In this document: positions 2,199 to 13,949 of the stretch, piece after piece
How the letters are laid out: the number at the start of each line of letters is the position of its first letter
Numbering within the stretch: position 1 is the first letter of the stretch
Source of the DNA: an uncultured virus (IMG/VR IMGVR_UViG_3300024317_000003)
Taxonomy: Duplodnaviria > Heunggongvirae > Uroviricota > Caudoviricetes
Virus record (IMG/VR): IMGVR_UViG_3300024317_000003
DNA: 20,000 nt
Direction: 5' to 3' (one strand)
Made by a program: the position numbers and the translations under genes
The notes under the pieces: model-generated
Database searches by the model: none
What the model saw: the letters and a program-made list of their open reading frames with translations, nothing else
Told to the model about the DNA's origin: nothing

Positions 2199-2725
2199 CC
2201 GAACGTCTCGATTTTTGGCAGGACTTGATTGAACGCTGCCTTTGCGTCTTTGGCATACACGATTCCGAGTGTCGACATTTTCAGCAGAAACCACAGGTCG
2301 CGATCGAAGTCCTTTTGAGCACCGAGAGAATGGCTTACACCGATCGAAATAAGTTTCCCCAATCCAAACGCCATCCCAACCTCTGCAATCGTGCCGTAGC
2401 AATCGCAAGAGTCGATCCAGGCGAACACAACATCGGCGTGATGGATATTGCTAATGCAGTTGTGGAAAGCTACAGCTCGGCCCGAGGGTATTTCGCCACC
2501 ACTACACCCCTCGTGCATCCCGTGATGCCCGGACACATGAGAACAGGAATGATCGCAACGGATAAAGAACGGCCCGACGTAGTTGTGGACGCCGTTGATC
2601 GCACTCTTGATAAACCCCTGACAAAGGCTCTCGTTGTCATAGCACTTAAAGCCGTCAACCAGTGTATGCCGCCAGCAGTTGGCTGTAATCTTTCCAGCAA
2701 AATAAGAGTTGATCGGATCTTTCAT
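2174..2725 (-). CDS. nucleoside 2-deoxyribosyltransferase / N-glycosidase-like protein (NDT superfamily)
   Basis: YFAGKI N-terminal strand, ADVVFAWID, and GTIAEVGMAFGLGK matching the GTxxExGxAxxxGK catalytic-Glu motif. Confidence 0.75.
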   Translation of the reverse strand: MKDPINSYFAGKITANCWRHTLVDGFKCYDNESLCQGFIKSAINGVHNYVGPFFIRCDHSCSHVSGHHGMHEGCSGGEIPSGRAVAFHNCISNIHHADVVFAWIDSCDCYGTIAEVGMAFGLGKLISIGVSHSLGAQKDFDRDLWFLLKMSTLGIVYAKDAKAAFNQVLPKIETFGCREAVRN

Positions 2726-2743
2726 GTGTCTCTGTATGGCATG

Positions 2744-2932
2744 TTAGCTTGCTATGAGTTTCTTTTCTTTCAGCCACTTTTGCCAAGCTCGTGTTTCTTC
2801 CATTACAATCCTCTCTAGTGGAACACCGTTGCGAGCCAGTGTGTCCGCGATCAGCTTCCAGACTTCTTTCCACTCTTTCCGCGCAGCTTCCATCTGCTCT
2901 TGCCTATGGTCGATAAAACCTTTAGCCGACAT
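2744..2932 (-). CDS. hypothetical protein, 62 aa (MSAKGFIDHRQEQMEAARKEWKEVW...)
   Basis: ATG 2932 overlaps the end of dnaB; amphipathic helical sequence. Confidence 0.6.
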   Translation of the reverse strand: MSAKGFIDHRQEQMEAARKEWKEVWKLIADTLARNGVPLERIVMEETRAWQKWLKEKKLIAS

Positions 2933-4334
2933 AGGGCGTTCGCGCGACGTCGGGAAACTCTGGTTCATCATCCGACCTTGAAGCTGATCCGAATCGGAAT
3001 TGTTGCGGGAAAAACACGAGATCAAGCTCGCCGGTTGGGCCGTCTTTGTTCTTGGCAAAATTCAATCGGACTGTGCGCTGCCTCTCATTGCTGAAGTCGT
3101 CACGAAACTGCGGATCGTAAAGCAGCCATGCTTTGTCCGCGTCATACTCGATTTGTCCCGAGGCTCGAAGATCAGATAGACGTGGAGCGCGCGGCTGTTT
3201 CTGTCCGCGCTCTGACTCCCTGTTGAGCGAGGAAATCAAAATCAAAGGCGCGTCAATCGATTTGCAAAGGTTTTTCGCGAACCGGCTGCCAGCGGTGATC
3301 TTTTCGTACTCAGACCTTCCGGGGCATTGCATGAGCTGAAGATAATCGATGATGAACAGTCGCGCGCCGCGTTGGTGCATCCTTCGGACAATGGCACCCA
3401 ACTCCGCGAGTGTGATGTCGCCGCGCTCACTCACCAGCAATTTGTCTGACAACGCATTGATCCGGCTGAACGCGGTCGTGACTTTCTGGATCTCTTCGCG
3501 AGTGGCATGCCCACGCATCAAGGCACCTCCTGATACTTCGGCCGAAAAACAGGAAATGCGGTGCATGAGTTTTTTGCCGGATGTTTCCAGCGAAATAATG
3601 CCGACGCAGATCCCGCTCTTAGCCACGTTGAGCGCGATGTTGAGCGCGAGGCTCGTCTTGCCGGTGCTGCGCAGGCCAGCAACAATTATCAGCTCCTGAG
3701 CCATAAGCCCGCCATTGAGCCGGTCAATGTCGGGGTATCCGGTTTGAATTCCGCTTGGCGTGTTGCGCTGGATCGCCTCTTCGTAATCGGCCTGCAGTTG
3801 CTGGATTGTGTCTTTGACGTCGACAAACGCAGACGCTGATTCCGTTGAGGCGCGGACGCCCATGACGTCCTGTTCGAATTTCGAGAGAAAATCCTCGGCT
3901 TGACCGTTAACTTTGTAAGCCCCGGTTGTGGTCTCTATGCAGAGCACAATCACGCGACGCAACAAAAACTTATTCAACACCAGATTGATGTAATCCGAAA
4001 GGTTCTGAGTTGAGGGTACATTGTTAGCAAGCTGCACGATATAGGACATGCCGCCACACTCATCCAGTTTTTCCCATAACTTGAGGCGTTCGCAAAGTGT
4101 CACGGTGTCGATCGCGCTGCCGTCGTCAAATAATTCCAGCATGGTTTCGAAAATCTGCCGGTGTGGAAGATGGTAGAACGCCATCGGGCCCGGCTTCAAA
4201 GCGACGATAGTGTCAGCCAAGCAGCGTTCCGGCTCGGTGAGGATGCAACCCAAAATACCCGCCTCTGCGTCCATCGCGTGCGGTGGAAGCTTATCCGGTA
4301 ATTGGTCTGGATTGTTTCGCGTGTTGGGCTTCAT
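2922..4334 (-). CDS. dnaB: replicative DNA helicase DnaB (phage-encoded)
   Basis: N-terminal LPPHAMDAEAGILG...FYHLPHRQIF; Walker A GLRSTGKTS; SLE; IIDYLQL; PRLSDLRASGQIEYDAD; AKNKDGPTG. Confidence 0.95.
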   Translation of the reverse strand: MKPNTRNNPDQLPDKLPPHAMDAEAGILGCILTEPERCLADTIVALKPGPMAFYHLPHRQIFETMLELFDDGSAIDTVTLCERLKLWEKLDECGGMSYIVQLANNVPSTQNLSDYINLVLNKFLLRRVIVLCIETTTGAYKVNGQAEDFLSKFEQDVMGVRASTESASAFVDVKDTIQQLQADYEEAIQRNTPSGIQTGYPDIDRLNGGLMAQELIIVAGLRSTGKTSLALNIALNVAKSGICVGIISLETSGKKLMHRISCFSAEVSGGALMRGHATREEIQKVTTAFSRINALSDKLLVSERGDITLAELGAIVRRMHQRGARLFIIDYLQLMQCPGRSEYEKITAGSRFAKNLCKSIDAPLILISSLNRESERGQKQPRAPRLSDLRASGQIEYDADKAWLLYDPQFRDDFSNERQRTVRLNFAKNKDGPTGELDLVFFPQQFRFGSASRSDDEPEFPDVARTPYVG

Positions 4335-5256
4335 ATTCTTCGCAGTCTTTCAACCAACCCAGGTAAGCCACCCGGTAACCGTCAAAAGTATCGTCCATCG
4401 CGGCGCCCCGTGCGAAGTGTTCGCGCTTTGGGCCCCCGTCCGTTCGAGTGTAGTAGCGTTCCTTTCCGCCGACGTACTGAACCCTGAACCGTTTCGAGCC
4501 CGGCACGCCGAACTGTTCCTTTTCCGGAACTTGCTCGGTAGGTTGGTCGAGCCACCGTTTGTCCCTGAGCCAGTTTCCGGGATCGGGGATGTAGCCACCC
4601 AGCCATTGCTCGGAATGCCGTTGGGCGGATATAGCGTCGAGCATCTGCTGCAGGAGCGGTAGCCCTCTGACTTCTACAAACGCGTGCTCAGCATCCCCCC
4701 TTTTGACTTTCTTAGGGTAGGCTTGCCAGAACCTCTCAAACGCAGATACCCCATCTGTAATACTGGCGTTACGGTTGTCAGTTGCTTTCATCTGAATCCC
4801 CCCTTGACCCCCCTCAGGTACAGAAACAGGTACAGAAGCAGAAGCAGAAGCAGAGATCTCGGGTGTAACGCTTGTAACGTTACGTAACGCCCTGTAACGC
4901 TCACGGTGTTTTCGAACCCGTTCTCTGGTAGATGTTGTTTGTGGATCGTTACTTAAACGGTCGCGGAACAAGTGATAATTGAGAATGAGCCACCCGTCGT
5001 CCAAAAACTCGACACGTCGACCTTCATATTCAGGCGTTCTAGATCTTGGGTCGGGCATGCGAAGCTTCTGTAACGCGCGCTCGCACTGCTCGGTAGACAC
5101 GCGAGACTTCCCTGCCAGCCACCCAGCCGAGCCCCGAACAAACCCGTCGGGATCCGCCAGCGCGAGCAGTGTCACCCATACCTTGCATGTGTAGGGATCT
5201 TCATCCCAAATCGAGCTATCCACGATGTCGCTGAAAAGTTTTACGTAGCCTGCCAT
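4291..5256 (-). CDS. phage replication initiator (replisome organizer / lambda O-like architecture)
   Basis: N-terminal domain MAGYVKLFSDIVDSSIW; basic helix RERVRKHRER; SASASAS linker with DNA repeats; C-terminal FERFWQAYPKK...IPDPGNWL; lies directly upstream of dnaB. Confidence 0.85.
   Translation of the reverse strand: MAGYVKLFSDIVDSSIWDEDPYTCKVWVTLLALADPDGFVRGSAGWLAGKSRVSTEQCERALQKLRMPDPRSRTPEYEGRRVEFLDDGWLILNYHLFRDRLSNDPQTTSTRERVRKHRERYRALRNVTSVTPEISASASASVPVSVPEGGQGGIQMKATDNRNASITDGVSAFERFWQAYPKKVKRGDAEHAFVEVRGLPLLQQMLDAISAQRHSEQWLGGYIPDPGNWLRDKRWLDQPTEQVPEKEQFGVPGSKRFRVQYVGGKERYYTRTDGGPKREHFARGAAMDDTFDGYRVAYLGWLKDCEEYEAQHAKQSRPITG
4815..4899. repeat. putative origin iterons inside the initiator gene
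   Basis: GTAACG at 4865, 4874, 4884 and 4894 (9-10 bp spacing) plus inverted CGTTAC at 4878; CAGGTACAGAA x2 and CAGAAG x3 at 4815-4850. Confidence 0.6.
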
Positions 5257-7897: not shown

Positions 7898-8091
7898 ATG
7901 CGCTCAAACCGTTGGCTCCGCCTGACGAAATCGCCATGCTCGCCCTCTACGTCGAGGGCTTTGCCCAAGGCACCGGCGACGATCGCCTCAAGAAAGCCGC
8001 CAAGTGGCTTGAGAGGCTATCCGAAAACATCTGCGCCCAGGGCTACATCGGTTGCAAAAGCGGTCGACACTGCATCTCAGACCACAAATGA
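7894..8091 (+). CDS. hypothetical protein, 65 aa, C-terminal Cys/His motif (C..GYIGC..G..C.SDHK)
   Basis: ATGA overlaps at both ends. Confidence 0.6.
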   Translation: MNALKPLAPPDEIAMLALYVEGFAQGTGDDRLKKAAKWLERLSENICAQGYIGCKSGRHCISDHK

Positions 8092-8450
8092 AAGTCCACA
8101 TCACCCAAACCCAAGCTCACGTTCTCACCCTGATCGCTCATGGCTTATCCTCCAAAGAAATCGCCTCTTTCCTCGGCGGCTCCACCAAGACCGTCGAGAA
8201 ACATCACCAAGCTCTCAACCAGAAACTCGACGCCCATTGCCCCATCCAACTCATCCGCCATGCTGTTGCTGCGGAAGCTCTTCCCCCTGACATTCTTTCT
8301 TTGCCTTTCCCACCCCGGTCCGCTTTTTTCGACGTGGCTCAAACCCTTCCAGTACCAGGGCCCGATCGATTATCTCACGCGCACCCTTCTTCACAGGGCC
8401 ATCCAAATGCAGTATCCGGAAATGCTCAGCTCGCTGCTGCTCACGGTTAA
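8088..8450 (+). CDS. LuxR/GerE-type HTH protein without a receiver domain
   Basis: ITQTQAHVLTLIAHGLSSKEIASFLGGSTKTVEKHHQALNQKL matches LuxR C-terminal HTH; ATGA overlap. Confidence 0.85.
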   Translation: MKVHITQTQAHVLTLIAHGLSSKEIASFLGGSTKTVEKHHQALNQKLDAHCPIQLIRHAVAAEALPPDILSLPFPPRSAFFDVAQTLPVPGPDRLSHAHPSSQGHPNAVSGNAQLAAAHG

Positions 8451-8464
8451 ACTCACGCGGCATC

Positions 8465-8941
8465 TTACTGCGCACCCTTCGGTAAAGCCTCATGCTGTAT
8501 TCGCTGCGCCCCAGCCTCATCCCCCCTATCCATCGCCCTCACCGCAGCAGTTTCCCCAGGCAGCGGAAGTCCAGTGTTCTTTGACCGATACTCCCTCTGT
8601 TTCATCCGCTTATATTCCCGCCTGTCGTCCGCCGTCATCCTGTCCCTATACGCCGCCCCGTTCAACACCAACCACCCTCCCTCTACCTCCTTTATCCGCC
8701 TCCCCTCATGCTCCCGCGTCTTCGAATACGGGTCCGGCTCCATCAACCGCTTCAACGCCGCCTCACACTCCGCTAACTCCACCCCTGCAGCCTGCGCTAA
8801 CCCAGGCACACTGCACTCCACTACCTGTTGCTGGTTCTTCTTCAACAACATTGTTATCCACACCAACCGCGTCTCCTTGCTCTCTAACACCCACACCGTA
8901 GAGTCCAACAACGTCGTAAATAGCTTCGTATATCCTGCCAT
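8465..8941 (-). CDS. truncated paralog of the replication initiator (N-terminal domain plus basic helix), 158 aa
   Basis: MAGYTKLF...PDPYSKTREHEGRR...GWLVLN aligns by eye to 4291..5256 at about 45 of 105 residues; GAGGAG RBS before ATG 8941. Confidence 0.85.
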   Translation of the reverse strand: MAGYTKLFTTLLDSTVWVLESKETRLVWITMLLKKNQQQVVECSVPGLAQAAGVELAECEAALKRLMEPDPYSKTREHEGRRIKEVEGGWLVLNGAAYRDRMTADDRREYKRMKQREYRSKNTGLPLPGETAAVRAMDRGDEAGAQRIQHEALPKGAQ

Positions 8942-8988
8942 ACTCCTCTCACCTTTCATGCCGGGTTACCCTCCATCCTCCTTAACAC

Positions 8989-9100
8989 TGTCCACAGATG
9001 TCAACAACTTTGTCCACGTCCACAAGTGGACACTCGTGGATGCTGTCGACAGATCCAGATCCAGATCCAGATCCCCAAACCCCTTTCCACGCATGTCCAC
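8989..9100. repeat. iteron-like (T)GTCVAC array plus (AGATCC)x4
   Basis: TGTCCAC 8989, TGTCAAC 8999, TGTCCAC 9011, GTCCAC 9018, inverted GTGGAC 9026, TGTCGAC 9044, TGTCCAC 9094; AGATCC x4 at 9051-9074. Confidence 0.65.
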
Positions 9101-10038: not shown

Positions 10039-10350
10039 ATGAAGACAAAAGCAAAGATTAGGTACGTAGAGACGCACCGTGCAGGGAAGCGGACGATCTA
10101 TACGGCAGTTTACAAAGGAGTACGGCTTGTGAGTGGCGCCGACATCGCAGAGGTAACGCGACAGGCCGAGGCGATGAAAGCGGACAACGACGCTTTGCAC
10201 GTTGATCGGTGCATGATCCTGGGGACACCGATCGGACCCAGCAGGAAACCGCCGATCGCCGGGCAGTTGATCCGGATGCTGGAGACAGCCGGATCGTTCA
10301 TGCGCATTCCACAGGGCAACCCGCCCAAGCACGGGAAAGGCAGTCTATGA
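10039..10350 (+). CDS. hypothetical protein, 103 aa
   Basis: A/C-rich leader; ATGA overlap with the AAA gene. Confidence 0.65.
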   Translation: MKTKAKIRYVETHRAGKRTIYTAVYKGVRLVSGADIAEVTRQAEAMKADNDALHVDRCMILGTPIGPSRKPPIAGQLIRMLETAGSFMRIPQGNPPKHGKGSL

Positions 10351-11888
10351 AAAAGCAGACAAAGCCCTTGCATCCATTCATCCGCGCGCGCCGGGCAGCG
10401 GTGCCAATACTGATTATTGAGAGTTACGACCCGGCCGCAACGATCGCCGATTGTGTAGCGTCGCTGAACGGATCCCAAGACGAGACCCCGCTGTTAATTT
10501 GGGATTGTGCATCCGCACTGCGCGAGGTGACGAGCGCAGTTGACGGACGAATGCAAGGCAACCCGGCCGGGAAGGCTTGGCTTGCGATGTTGCCAGACGA
10601 GGTTAAGGCCGCTTGCGCGTCGCCAATGTTCCCTCAGACCTTGCTGCAGCATCCGCCGATATTTAACGACGTACCCGGGGCAGTGTTCGCTTTGAACATG
10701 CATCAGTTTATCGGGGACCCGAACCGATCGGACCCTGGAACCATACAAGCAATCTGGAACATACGCGACGCGTTCAAGGCTAACGGTTGCACGCTTGTCT
10801 TGATTGGCTGTAGTGCCAAACTCCCGCCCGAATTAAAGAACGATGTTCCGACATTCGCCGAGCCGATACCAGACGAGCCGATGATCAGTGACGTAATCGA
10901 TTCGATCTTGGGGGATGCTGAAATCGACGCGGGCAAAGTCGACAAAGCCAAGGTGACGGACGGGTTACTAGGTTACTTGTCCCGGTTTAGCGTTGAACAA
11001 TCGCTGGCGCTGAGTCTGGAGCCGGATGGGGTAGACCTTGACCAACTTTGGGATCTCAAGGTTGCAGCTTTAAAGGCAACTGCAGGGCTGGAGATAACCC
11101 GGCCGAAGCTTACATTCGCGGATCTCAAGGGATCAGCCGGATCCATTGACTTGCTAAACAAGTTGCTGCACGGGAAACGGCCGCCGCGCGCTGTCCTACA
11201 GCTTGACGAAATCGAAAAGATGATTGCCGGATCCGCTGGAGACTTGTCAGGAACAACTCAGGGTTTACTGGAGCAGTTTTTGACGTGGACCGAAGAGCGC
11301 AACGTGCAGGGAATTCTTTTGACGGGTATCCCTGGAGCCGGGAAAAGTTTGACCTGCAAATGCACAGCAGGCGAAGCCAACGTACCCTTGTTGCGCGCGT
11401 CAATGTCGACGGTGAAAGGCTCTTTAGTTGGGCAATCTGAAGGCCAAATGAAGGCTTTATTAGCGGCAGTGGATGCAGTAGGTCAAGGCCGGGTGCTACT
11501 GCTGTCGACTTCGAATTCATTCGAGAGTTTACCCCCGGAAGTTATCGCCAGACACCGGATCGGGGTGCTCTTTTACGATTACCCGCAATCGGCCGAATCT
11601 AAATCGATTTGGCAGTACTACCTCAGGAAGTACGAAATCAAAGACGACAAGATCCCGCCATCGCAGAATTGGGTAGGCCGGGAGATTGCCTCATGCTGTG
11701 AGCGGGCTTGGCTATTTGATTGCAGTTTGGCCGAGGCTGCAAAGTCGGTTGTTCCAGTTTGCACGGCCAACGCTGGCAAAATGGATGCATTACGCCGATC
11801 GGTTTCCGGCCGATTCCTGAGTGCATCGCACCCGGGATTATTCAACATTGAAATAGCCCAAAGCACGGGTAGAAAGATCGAGGTTTAA
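10347..11888 (+). CDS. Ycf46-like AAA+ ATPase with permuted core (Walker B block before Walker A), 513 aa
   Basis: Ycf46-like N-domain (IRARRAAVPILII...LPPELK); VLQLDEIEK, FLTWTEE, GILLTGIPGAGKS, LVGQSE, STSN, LPPEVIARHR, WVGREI; ATG 10347 overlaps the previous stop. Confidence 0.85.
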   Translation: MKKQTKPLHPFIRARRAAVPILIIESYDPAATIADCVASLNGSQDETPLLIWDCASALREVTSAVDGRMQGNPAGKAWLAMLPDEVKAACASPMFPQTLLQHPPIFNDVPGAVFALNMHQFIGDPNRSDPGTIQAIWNIRDAFKANGCTLVLIGCSAKLPPELKNDVPTFAEPIPDEPMISDVIDSILGDAEIDAGKVDKAKVTDGLLGYLSRFSVEQSLALSLEPDGVDLDQLWDLKVAALKATAGLEITRPKLTFADLKGSAGSIDLLNKLLHGKRPPRAVLQLDEIEKMIAGSAGDLSGTTQGLLEQFLTWTEERNVQGILLTGIPGAGKSLTCKCTAGEANVPLLRASMSTVKGSLVGQSEGQMKALLAAVDAVGQGRVLLLSTSNSFESLPPEVIARHRIGVLFYDYPQSAESKSIWQYYLRKYEIKDDKIPPSQNWVGREIASCCERAWLFDCSLAEAAKSVVPVCTANAGKMDALRRSVSGRFLSASHPGLFNIEIAQSTGRKIEV

Positions 11889-11889
11889 C

Positions 11890-12282
11890 GTGAGTCATTG
11901 GACAAATATAGACGTAAAGATCCAGACGTTGGCCGCGGCAGAAGCCGCTTGCCGGGAACTTGGATTTAAATTCGAACGCGCGCCGATCGGGCAAAAGCTT
12001 GACGCGCGAGGTTACAACGGATTAACCCGTAAAGCAGACGCTGTTATTAGGCTCCCTGGACCCTATGACGTAGCATTGACGCGGGAAGCTAACGGAAGCT
12101 ATTCGCTCGCTTGCGACTTCTGGAACGGACACGTTGAAAGATCCCTGGGGAAGAATTGCCAGAAATTCACGCAACTCTATGGGGTGCACGTAGCGACCGC
12201 GGCCGCCCGGGCTAAGGGTTATCAGGTTCGACGCATGCAGGGTGCAAACGGATCAATCAACCTCGTAATGAGCGTACCATGA
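11890..12282 (+). CDS. DUF1257 (Ycf35-like) family protein
   Basis: MSHWTNIDVKI...AACRELG...YDVAL...YSLACDFW...QLYG...ARAKGY pattern; adjacent to a Ycf46-like AAA. Confidence 0.75.
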   Translation: MSHWTNIDVKIQTLAAAEAACRELGFKFERAPIGQKLDARGYNGLTRKADAVIRLPGPYDVALTREANGSYSLACDFWNGHVERSLGKNCQKFTQLYGVHVATAAARAKGYQVRRMQGANGSINLVMSVP

Positions 12283-12467
12283 AAACGATCACCGTAGAGA
12301 TTAAGGAAGACGGACAGGTAAGGATCGAAGCTGCAGGCTTCACCGGATCCGCCTGCGAAAAGGCAACCGAAGCGATCGAAAAGGCTTTAGGGGTGCCCTC
12401 GGGTAACCGGAACAAAAAGCCGGAATACTATCAGGGCAACGCCGCAACGCAGAGGGTAACCCAGTGA
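12279..12467 (+). CDS. DUF2997 family protein
   Basis: ITVEIKEDGQVRIEAAGFTGSACEKATEAIEKALG...KKPEYY pattern. Confidence 0.8.
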   Translation: MKTITVEIKEDGQVRIEAAGFTGSACEKATEAIEKALGVPSGNRNKKPEYYQGNAATQRVTQ

Positions 12468-12712
12468 AAGACGTAATCATAAGGTTTGAGACCAACGGAT
12501 CCGCTAAATGCTTGTGGACCGAAGCGATCGACCTGAACGCAATCGGCCGCCTGCAGGTATTCCGCGCGTCGACAATCGAATATGATAACGCGCGCCGCCG
12601 CTGGATTGTGACTGTCGACGAGCAAGAGCTTTTCGGCCATGCCAGCAGACAAGCCTGCATTGACTTCGAACATGACGAGCTTAACCGCGCGCTAACCGAG
12701 GGCAGGATCTAG
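12464..12712 (+). CDS. small hypothetical protein of the AAA/DUF1257/DUF2997 module
   Basis: GTGA overlap; G.AKCLWTEAIDL..IG.L...RAS.IE motif, which I recall from similar gene clusters. Confidence 0.7.
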   Translation: MKDVIIRFETNGSAKCLWTEAIDLNAIGRLQVFRASTIEYDNARRRWIVTVDEQELFGHASRQACIDFEHDELNRALTEGRI

Positions 12713-12812: not shown

Positions 12813-13949
12813 ATGGACAGTATTACAACATTAGACGCAGAGGCTTTTAAAGACTCTGTATTCCTGCACGTATCGGTCAAGGGTGCAACCCCCTGGACCG
12901 CTAAGGTGACCAACGCCGAAAAGGTACAAGAATATCACGCCTTACAGGCCGCGGAAATCGAAGCGAAAAAAGCCGGTGGGGAGACGATCGATCGATCGCG
13001 CATTGCCCTGGAAAGCCCTAGCGGTGCCAGTACTGGCGCCGGGAAAACCGCTCTGCGAATGACCAAGCGACTACTCTATTCCCCCCAGTTTGACGCACTG
13101 AGGAAACACTTAACAGACGCTAAATACGCTATTGTTGCGCCGCCGCAATATGGGGGATTGGCCAACCCAAGCGGGATCATGGATGGACTCTTTGAATTGC
13201 ATAAAAGCCTAGTCCCCCGGGTGAACGCTGCGATCGCCGAAGCCAAACGCCGCTTGCTGGAACCTTGGGTCGACGCTGAAGGCATGGAACATCCCGGGCA
13301 TTTAACCGCTTTCCTTGCTGATTATCCGGCCGCAATAGAACGCGCGCGCATAGCCCCGATCCTTGAGGGTGGTTTAGGTCCGCTTTTCGACTTGTCCGAC
13401 TACCCCAGCGAAAACGAAGTCGGGGCAGCTTTCGACATAGACCGCCGATGGCTGGCATTTGGGGTGCCTGAAGGTTTACCCCAGGAATTGCGTGAGCAGG
13501 CGCTGAACGAATTGCGCGCCGACTTGCGCCAAGCTGGGGAGACCATCAAAGAAACGCTGCGAAGTGGTTTGCTGGAGCTTTTACAACACGGCCGGGATGT
13601 ATTGACCCTGAAACCCGGGGAGAAGCCAAAGCAGATCAAGGAAAGCTTGATCGGGAATGTTCTGCAGTTCTGCGAGGTGTTCAGTATGCGCAACACCCAG
13701 GGCGACGAGGAACTAGCCCGGATAGTAACGCAATGCCGGGAGACCTTGACGGGTTTTGACCCGGATAAATGCCGGAAGTTTGAAAGCGTGCGAGAGGAAG
13801 CGGCCGCGCGCTTTGCGCAGTTGCACGCGGCAGTTGACACGCTGATCACTACCACCAAAGGGAGACGGTTCGACTTTGGCGCCGGGCAAGAGCCGAGACC
13901 CGCGGCCGCGGCCGAACCCACTCCGCAACCGGACCTTGCTACTGCCTGA
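12813..13949 (+). CDS. 378 aa helical protein, DUF3150-like
   Basis: MTKRLL...LGPLFDLSDYPS...FCEVFSMRNTQGDEELARIV pattern; AAAGGA RBS; family recognised from motif and context only. Confidence 0.6.
   Translation: MDSITTLDAEAFKDSVFLHVSVKGATPWTAKVTNAEKVQEYHALQAAEIEAKKAGGETIDRSRIALESPSGASTGAGKTALRMTKRLLYSPQFDALRKHLTDAKYAIVAPPQYGGLANPSGIMDGLFELHKSLVPRVNAAIAEAKRRLLEPWVDAEGMEHPGHLTAFLADYPAAIERARIAPILEGGLGPLFDLSDYPSENEVGAAFDIDRRWLAFGVPEGLPQELREQALNELRADLRQAGETIKETLRSGLLELLQHGRDVLTLKPGEKPKQIKESLIGNVLQFCEVFSMRNTQGDEELARIVTQCRETLTGFDPDKCRKFESVREEAAARFAQLHAAVDTLITTTKGRRFDFGAGQEPRPAAAAEPTPQPDLATA

Follow-up and report, generated by a model that had tools for sequence, protein, structure and literature searches.

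Phage-borne Ycf46-like ATPases with two adjacent segments of the AAA core in exchanged order

The window analysed here, a 20,000-nucleotide stretch of DNA from an uncultured virus, encodes an AAA ATPase (P0001) whose Walker B block precedes its Walker A block. Judging by the sequence comparisons described below, this order is a real, conserved and non-circular permutation of the AAA core. In our reading, which we hold with considerable confidence, P0001 is a Ycf46-like type-II AAA protein with a degenerate first domain (D1) and an active second domain (D2) of the classical clade, in which the adjacent segments B and C were exchanged once, in an ancestor that gave rise to a very large clade carried by phages, with purifying selection maintaining the exchanged order ever since; the usual three-dimensional core and the classical AAA motor action would have been preserved. 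The AAA+/ASCE core is a heavily studied fold, in which Walker A is taken, as a fixed rule, to precede Walker B. An ancient and successful natural family in which these units are exchanged indicates that a non-circular rearrangement of the chain can be accommodated by the fold and its active site.

The ATPase gene (Table 1) occupies an uninterrupted frame of 513 codons, which is open already from a GTG at 10209. We set the start at the ATG at 10347, from which all residue numbers are counted, because the N-termini of relatives align to M1 and because this ATG overlaps the stop codon of the upstream ORF as ATGA. An earlier note on this DNA had read the motifs AVLQLDEIEK, SGTTQGLLEQFLTWTEE, GIPGAGKS, LVGQSE, VLLLSTSN and LPPEVIARHR from the sequence, and all of them lie where it had placed them, in one frame. 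AVLQLDE (residues 282-288) has the hallmark of a Walker B motif, hhhhDE at the end of a strand (282-286 in the model), and GIPGAGKS, which conforms to GxxxxGK[ST], is the sole Walker A match in P0001 (residue 327). N390 and R402, the latter within LPPEVIARHR (residues 395-404), are the putative polar residue of sensor 1 and the putative arginine finger, roles that were assigned by alignment to relatives. Walker B lies 45 residues upstream of the Walker A lysine, and P0001 has no second Walker B after alpha2. Instead of the textbook chain order (beta1/Walker A-alpha1-beta2-alpha2-beta3/Walker B-alpha3-beta4), we thus observe the order beta3/Walker B-alpha3-beta1/Walker A-alpha1-beta2-alpha2-beta4.

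Table 1. Coordinates of the ATPase gene, its parts and neighbouring genes in the window. Residues are those of P0001.
Feature	Position	Strand	Content or basis
DnaB-like helicase	2922-4334	opposite strand	upstream of the ATPase
Replication-initiator-like protein	4291-5256	opposite strand	upstream of the ATPase
Upstream ORF	10039-10350	+	
ATPase gene (P0001)	10347..11888	+	513 aa, two AAA domains, stop codon included
D1, AAA-like domain without P-loop, residues 6-245	10362..11081	+	common to normal-order relatives
Moved block C, residues 282-319 (38 residues)	11190..11303	+	out-of-order profile match and DSSP of the model; strand beta3* 282-286, Walker B D287/E288 (11205-11210), pore-loop-2 region 297-302, helix alpha3 303-317
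Block B, residues 320-381	11304..11489	+	normal-order profile and Pfam AAA model 1-57 on 323-379; beta1 321-327, Walker A GIPGAGKS 327-334 (11325-11348), alpha1, beta2 348-351, pore loop 1 LVG 360-362 (11424-11432), alpha2 363-379
Segment D, residues 382-513	11490..11885	+	beta4, putative sensor-1 N390 (11514-11516), R402 (11550-11552), beta5, helical lid, C-terminal tail
DUF1257 (Ycf35 family) gene, 130 aa	11890..12282	+	Pfam PF06868, E 3.5e-12; 2 bases past the ATPase stop
DUF2997 gene, 62 aa	12279..12467	+	Pfam PF11211, E 8.5e-15; 4-base overlap with each neighbour
ORF	12464-12712	+	last in the packed gene run

The exchange is most evident in a comparison with a profile built from 20 normal-order relatives (492 nodes). 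This profile matches P0001 in four pieces: positions 8-231 on residues 7-264 (E 3e-23), positions 311-351 on residues 282-319 (E 2e-8, out of order), positions 249-311 on residues 319-381 (E 1e-19) and positions 354-477 on residues 383-503 (E 3e-31). All four matches are significant, they read A-C-B-D in P0001, and not a single residue is lost at the junctions. Identical pieces in identical order are found in gp103 of the cultured phage Tunturi_3 and in the deep-branching homolog P0209. Likewise, an alignment of ten swapped and seven normal-order relatives is colinear save for one block of about 41 residues, comprising beta3, Walker B, a DSGV/SGT loop and alpha3, which follows alpha2 in the normal-order proteins and precedes beta1 in the swapped ones. 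The proposal of the earlier note, that a beta3-alpha3 block of about 40 residues has moved ahead of beta1 and is gone from its usual place, is therefore borne out, and so is its view that segments were swapped and that this is no simple circular permutation. A circular permutation has new termini and the old ones joined, but in P0001 the chain termini and both flanks, segments A and D, are in place. The rearrangement amounts to an internal B-C that is rotated to C-B.

General domain models see only part of this core. Pfam PF00004 passes its gathering threshold (48.3 vs 21.2 bits, E 1.7e-12), but its best stretch covers only model positions 1-57 of 131, on residues 323-379. Sequence matches in the PDB span residues 318-386, and NCBIfam models, of which just partial FtsH and IteA matches were obtained, cover residues 321-368 in P0001 vs about 180 residues (256-438) with the same kinds of model in the normal-order homolog P0103. 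As domain profiles cover only some 57 of 131 positions, annotation pipelines report a truncated AAA match and miss the Walker B motif. The suspicion that such proteins pass for plain AAA proteins in ordinary annotation was justified, given that the source records call the relatives 'AAA family ATPase'.

The closest normal-order counterparts are Ycf46-like ATPases such as Mycobacterium phage Corndog gp96 (NP_817947.1), Rhizobium phage RHph_I4 EVC24_084, Agrobacterium phage JP1_048 and Planctomycetota P0103. Like P0001, they possess a degenerate N-terminal domain, a lid and a C-terminal tail, together with the full set of motifs. Identity amounts to 25-28% over 73-97% of the query, colinearity extends over 427 alignment columns, and the folds match the same p97/Cdc48, Vps4 and spastin chains. 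The two groups differ in that Walker A comes first in the normal-order relatives, whereas a Walker B block of 38-41 residues comes first in the family of P0001. With respect to the Ycf46-like ATPases of DUF1257/DUF2997 modules, P0001 has a degenerate domain at its N-terminus and a lid and tail at its C-terminus that are homologous to theirs, and DUF1257 and DUF2997 genes follow directly downstream, but it does not have the colinear AAA core.

The swapped order is widespread. In a word-indexed search for homologs, among which the earlier note had suggested looking for the same order, 100 of the 120 matches listed (33-100% identity) have Walker B first; the remaining 20 (25-28% identity) have Walker A first. 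In an exhaustive search of 1.84 billion representatives, we obtained 5237 matches at E ≤ 0.001, of which 923 reached E ≤ 1e-30; of the best 150, all of them representatives of 50% clusters, 148 have the swapped order. The two exceptions are P0130, whose P-loop is interrupted by an intein, and P0191, in which the Walker B pattern found no match. When full-length proteins and ORFs from the loci were pooled (n=505), 327 were swapped, 176 had the normal order and two were left unclassified; among these 505, which were drawn from the best 120-150 matches per large search, none has both orders or two Walker B blocks. An extra profile search with normal-order sequences returned mainly close Planctomycetota relatives and added little diversity. 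Three over-long members (P0130, P0156 and P0158) were considered as segment duplications and rejected, as their extra length consists of homing inteins in the P-loop region.

Both groups keep a characteristic spacing between the two motifs: the Walker B glutamate and the Walker A lysine are 44-48 residues apart in 305 of the 327 swapped proteins, and lysine and glutamate are 54 residues apart in 175 of the 176 normal-order proteins. Despite a mean column identity of 27% in 150 swapped sequences, E288, G327, G330, K333, G362, N390 and R402 are invariant, and D287 (at least 90%), K291, R483 and R509 are nearly so. The claim that P0001 keeps all catalytic residues can thus be extended to these 150 members, in which the catalytic set is invariant. 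Pore loop 1 reads LVG; the aromatic residue that many AAA unfoldases carry in this loop is missing, as it is in most normal-order relatives. The glycine preceding the P-loop lysine, on the other hand, is replaced in 101 of the 327 swapped proteins (by A in 82, by S in 15 and by other residues in 4) vs one of the 176 normal-order proteins, and Walker B reads EE in 14 of the 327. Given these replacements, part of the swapped clade may bind or hydrolyse nucleotide differently.

To trace the origin of the swap, we calculated a tree from 35 swapped rows (≤42% pairwise identity) and 20 normal-order rows (≤62%), leaving out all others; the latter group includes Corndog gp96, JP1_048 and RHph_I4 EVC24_084. 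As only the 427 colinear columns that are filled in both groups were used, the moved block has no influence on the result. A branch of length 0.94 with an SH-aLRT value of 100 sets the swapped rows apart from the normal-order rows, and a single state change suffices to explain the distribution of the two orders, compared with a mean of 16.4 for shuffled labels. The tree, which comes from a quick search with SH-aLRT support only, is unrooted and has long branches, fits a single origin of the swap. To our knowledge, all other AAA proteins have the normal order, which we consequently take as ancestral. A plausible route would be a tandem duplication of B-C, after which the first B and the last C were deleted; an intermediate of this route was found in none of the 505 full-length proteins.

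Despite their different chain order, swapped and normal-order proteins are predicted to be built from the same elements. An AlphaFold2 model of P0001, based on an alignment of 150 sequences, has a pLDDT of 94.8 and a pTM of 0.91, and its 10-residue pLDDT block means over residues 280-319 are 98, 88, 94 and 97. According to DSSP, D2 of this model consists of alpha0 (264-274), a strand (282-286), two helices (289-296 and 303-317), a strand (321-327), a helix (333-344), a strand (348-351), a helix (363-379), a strand (383-389), a helix (397-401) and a strand (406-410). The model of the normal-order homolog P0103 (40 sequences, pLDDT 88.1) shows the same elements in the textbook order; in a direct comparison, the element sets of the two models are equal, with the E5+H8+H15 unit relocated.

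In searches of known structures, the P0001 model matches the D1-D2 tandems of p97, Cdc48, NVL, Rix7 and Afg2 (Foldseek E about 1e-11), and its residues 6-490 align with 7lmz_C (p97/Cdc48 D1+D2) over 399 residues (Z 17.8, rmsd 4.8). Since the whole model matches a tandem of the p97 type, we regard the N-terminal half as a degenerate AAA-like domain. D2 alone aligns with the p97 D2 domain 6g2w over 197 residues (Z 16.7, rmsd 2.6). With a structural aligner that follows sequence order, 197/231 residues of the swapped/normal-order models are aligned on 6g2w, 199/232 on 6g2x, 203/247 on 3cf0_A, 212/255 on Vps4 6bmf_B, 218/254 on 3d8b_A, 221/255 on 6p07_B and 399/447 on 7lmz_C. At similar rmsd, the swapped model thus has 33-48 fewer residues aligned on the same chains, a deficit of the size of the block.

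A mean-field direct-coupling analysis of residues 245-440 in 232 swapped sequences (effective number 209) points in the same direction. Among the 100 strongest pairs of residues at least six positions apart (≥6), 31 join residues 281-318 to the rest of the domain. The start of the moved strand is coupled to the end of alpha2 (282-379, rank 1, and 281-380), its neighbour in the normal order. Further couplings connect beta3* with beta2 (284-351, rank 4), with beta4 (287-388, 284-383 and 284-385) and, beside the P-loop serine, with alpha1 (285-334/337/338); pore loop 2 is coupled to pore loop 1 (301-361 and 306-352/354/357), and alpha3 to beta4 (314/315-385) and, in seven pairs, to alpha2. Given that the moved strand is coupled to beta2, beta4 and alpha1, and considering the model confidence and the secondary structure, the usual three-dimensional core seems to be kept in the swapped proteins, although AlphaFold and the coupling analysis share overlapping alignments and are not fully independent. 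A complex prediction for three copies of residues 245-513 with 2 ATP and 2 Mg gave a score of 0.00 and a mark of 0.42, which speaks neither for nor against oligomerisation.

How the chain could be re-routed may be understood from the architecture of the sheet. In AAA domains, the strands are arranged in the order 5-1-4-3-2, so that beta1 and beta3 both flank beta4; a displacement of one strand would consequently be required for two of the re-routed connections, and one of two strands for the N-terminal linker. In the swapped proteins, alpha3 would reach beta1 instead of beta4, alpha2 would reach beta4 instead of beta3, and the N-terminal linker would reach beta3 instead of beta1; no connections other than these three would be re-routed. 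In the model, the linkers between alpha3 and beta1 (318-320) and between alpha2 and beta4 (380-382) are about three residues long each, which fits a re-routing by one or two strands. If beta3* still inserts between beta2 and beta4, as the couplings suggest, D287 and E288 would face K333, with N390 of sensor 1 between them, and R402 would act on the neighbouring subunit. From the conservation of the four catalytic elements and the pore-loop glycine, we infer an active, substrate-threading AAA motor, which would form a ring, hydrolyse ATP and pull its substrate through a pore lined by LVG and pore loop 2, probably in concert with the products of the co-transcribed DUF1257 and DUF2997 genes.

The rewiring might also have consequences of its own. 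In the swapped clade, the linker from D1 leads directly into the strand of Walker B and into pore loop 2, where in the normal order it would lead into beta1 and the P-loop; Walker B and pore loop 2 are thereby connected to the domain upstream and not to alpha2. It is conceivable, if rather improbable, that this change is not neutral but alters the control of the motor, with D1 or a bound partner (DUF1257/DUF2997) gating the catalytic glutamate and the pore directly. Such a new control route would explain both the emergence of a large clade from one ancient swap and the freely varying P-loop glycine.

Two rival readings are possible, and we consider either of them quite unlikely. In the first, the moved block becomes part of a neighbouring subunit's sheet, as in 3D domain swapping, or packs elsewhere, so that the active site is built differently. 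The short linkers described above would speak for this arrangement, as would the uncommon crossing of the re-routed connections below the sheet that the general topology of the fold demands. Yet the monomer model is confident throughout block C, and the coevolving pairs correspond to ordinary beta2-beta3-beta4 packing, even though such pairs are blind to the difference between contacts within and between the chains of a homo-oligomer. In the second, the protein is a pseudo-ATPase, which has kept its fold and nucleotide binding but lost hydrolysis, and serves as a nucleotide-dependent switch or scaffold. The frequent replacement of the glycine before the P-loop lysine and the occasional EE in place of DE speak for this reading; the catalytic glutamate, the P-loop lysine, the sensor-1 asparagine and the arginine at the finger position, however, are invariant in 150 diverse sequences, and a non-hydrolysing protein would hardly keep all four. 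Furthermore, three members carry homing inteins in the region of the P-loop, and sites essential for function are the usual targets of inteins. We therefore continue to favour the active motor with an ordinary core.

Finally, the permuted order could have arisen in this contig through faulty assembly or gene calling, and the earlier note had asked for a check of the assembly across the swap region. In contigs from three soil-metagenome runs, any of which may be the source sample, the whole of 10900-11900 is present, free of joints and with 0 differences, and a fourth run covers 11031-11282 and 11316-11900, likewise with 0 differences. While the window is metagenomic and the three spanning runs may be its own source, an artefact is practically excluded by the conservation of the swapped order across the family, with hundreds of independent relatives down to 33% identity and a cultured Tunturiibacter phage, Tunturi_3, among its carriers, by four runs free of joints and differences and by the uninterrupted reading frame.

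Among better characterized proteins, p97/VCP, Cdc48, NVL, Rix7 and Afg2/Drg1 have the same tandem AAA architecture and domain fold as P0001, and the region from Walker A through pore loop 1 can be aligned in sequence. Sequence identity to these proteins, whose structures are solved, is nevertheless only 12-15%. Unlike these p97-type ATPases, P0001 has a D1 without a P-loop, a different chain order in D2 and no N-terminal cofactor-binding domain. Altered motif orders within a retained fold are also found in GTPases of the YlqF/YjeQ type, which are circularly permuted P-loop NTPases. In these, however, the whole domain is circularly permuted and has new termini, whereas P0001 has unchanged termini and two exchanged internal segments; moreover, they belong to the GTPase class and P0001 to the ASCE/AAA+ class. 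Full-text searches of the openly accessible literature did not turn up any account of AAA domains in which Walker B precedes Walker A. The parts consulted of the literature on Ycf46 and DUF1257/DUF2997, including PMC4284462, do not describe such a permutation either, and the main text of the Tunturi phage paper (PMC11924767) does not mention the ATPase. For work on folding and design, the swapped and normal-order ATPases are a pair supplied by nature, made of the same parts but wired differently, and since the swapped form occurs in a cultured phage, as gp103 of Tunturiibacter phage Tunturi_3, the matter can be addressed experimentally.

In the window, the ATPase gene is the second of five close-packed genes on the + strand, from the upstream ORF through the DUF1257 and DUF2997 genes to the last ORF (Table 1). 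The pair of DUF1257 and DUF2997 genes also lies downstream of the swapped ATPase in Tunturiibacter phage Tunturi_3 and of the normal-order ATPase in Rhizobium phage RHph_I4, and the AAA-DUF1257-DUF2997 arrangement is thus found with either segment order. In 73 viral loci, Pfam searches of the first two downstream + strand ORFs (E ≤ 0.001) identified DUF1257 in 10, DUF3150 in 8 and DUF2997 in 1. Many small genes beside the ATPase in the viral loci are without a Pfam match. Scans of the window for tRNAs and Rfam families found none, and PADLOC returned weak, partial IetA matches around Walker A only, for which we claim no membership in a defence system. The relatives of P0001 sit mainly on viral contigs (227 of 267 pattern matches confirmed), and the protein atlas clusters that are nearest by sequence features are 57-96% viral.

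Of the 327 proteins in which the Walker B block precedes Walker A (swapped order), 101 have alanine, serine or another residue in place of the glycine preceding the P-loop lysine, compared with just one of 176 normal-order proteins. The two-domain AAA ATPase of the window (P0001) retains GKS in its P-loop (residues 327-334). Its lid motif, WVGREI (residues 442-447), contains a GREI sequence which, in an alignment of 17 sequences, is found in P0001 and its five closest relatives, while GAEI is found in the more distant swapped relatives and in all normal-order relatives.

Domains of inteins or homing endonucleases (Intein_splicing, LAGLIDADG_3, HNH_3 and Hom_end_hint) are present in three swapped-order relatives of 810-896 aa, the cluster representatives P0130, P0156 and P0158. 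The insertion in P0158 begins directly behind the P-loop GK (HPGTGKC...). Frame breaks were also observed exactly at Walker B, following ...FIDEI in a swapped-order viral locus (L069) and following ...LFVD in two normal-order loci (L126 and L130); in L126, ATPase-like sequence is found further downstream in another frame. The pattern of these breaks suggests a mobile insertion, an intron or one of another kind, that targets the Walker B codons.

For several structural neighbours of P0001, the protein atlas gives the aligned region the label PF30482 (Pfam 38.1), and the neighbours labelled in this way include a mostly cyanobacterial cluster described as a putative AAA family ATPase.

Coordinates of the ATPase gene, its surroundings in the window and the loci discussed
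Feature	Position	Strand	Remarks
DnaB-like replicative helicase	window, within 2922-5256	-	Pfam DnaB_C, E 9e-56; phrog_19, E 2e-76
Replication-initiator-like protein	window, within 2922-5256	-	phrog_270, E 5e-17; overlaps helicase gene
164-aa ORF	window, 8465-8959	-	
(CAGATC)x4	window, 9050-9074		perfect repeat
P0001	window, 10347-11888	+	513 aa
P0001 lid motif	window, 11670-11687	+	
378-aa protein	window, 12813-13949	+	
L069	4001-5684		swapped-order viral locus
L126-L132	about 2501-4400		normal-order locus set; protein match ends at residue 325

Proteins matching DUF3150 (about 280-490 aa) are encoded shortly 3' of the swapped ATPase in eight of the 73 viral loci (L006, L007, L022, L035, L039, L047, L048 and L054); the 378-aa protein encoded at the equivalent position in the window matched no Pfam or PHROG family. 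The genes for the DnaB-like helicase and the initiator-like protein are transcribed in the direction leading away from the ATPase operon. The overlapping + strand ORFs in the part of the window with the CAGATC repeat and the stretch at 8001-9000 matched no family, and over this 1-kb stretch the + strand is strongly C-rich, with a GC skew of -0.40.
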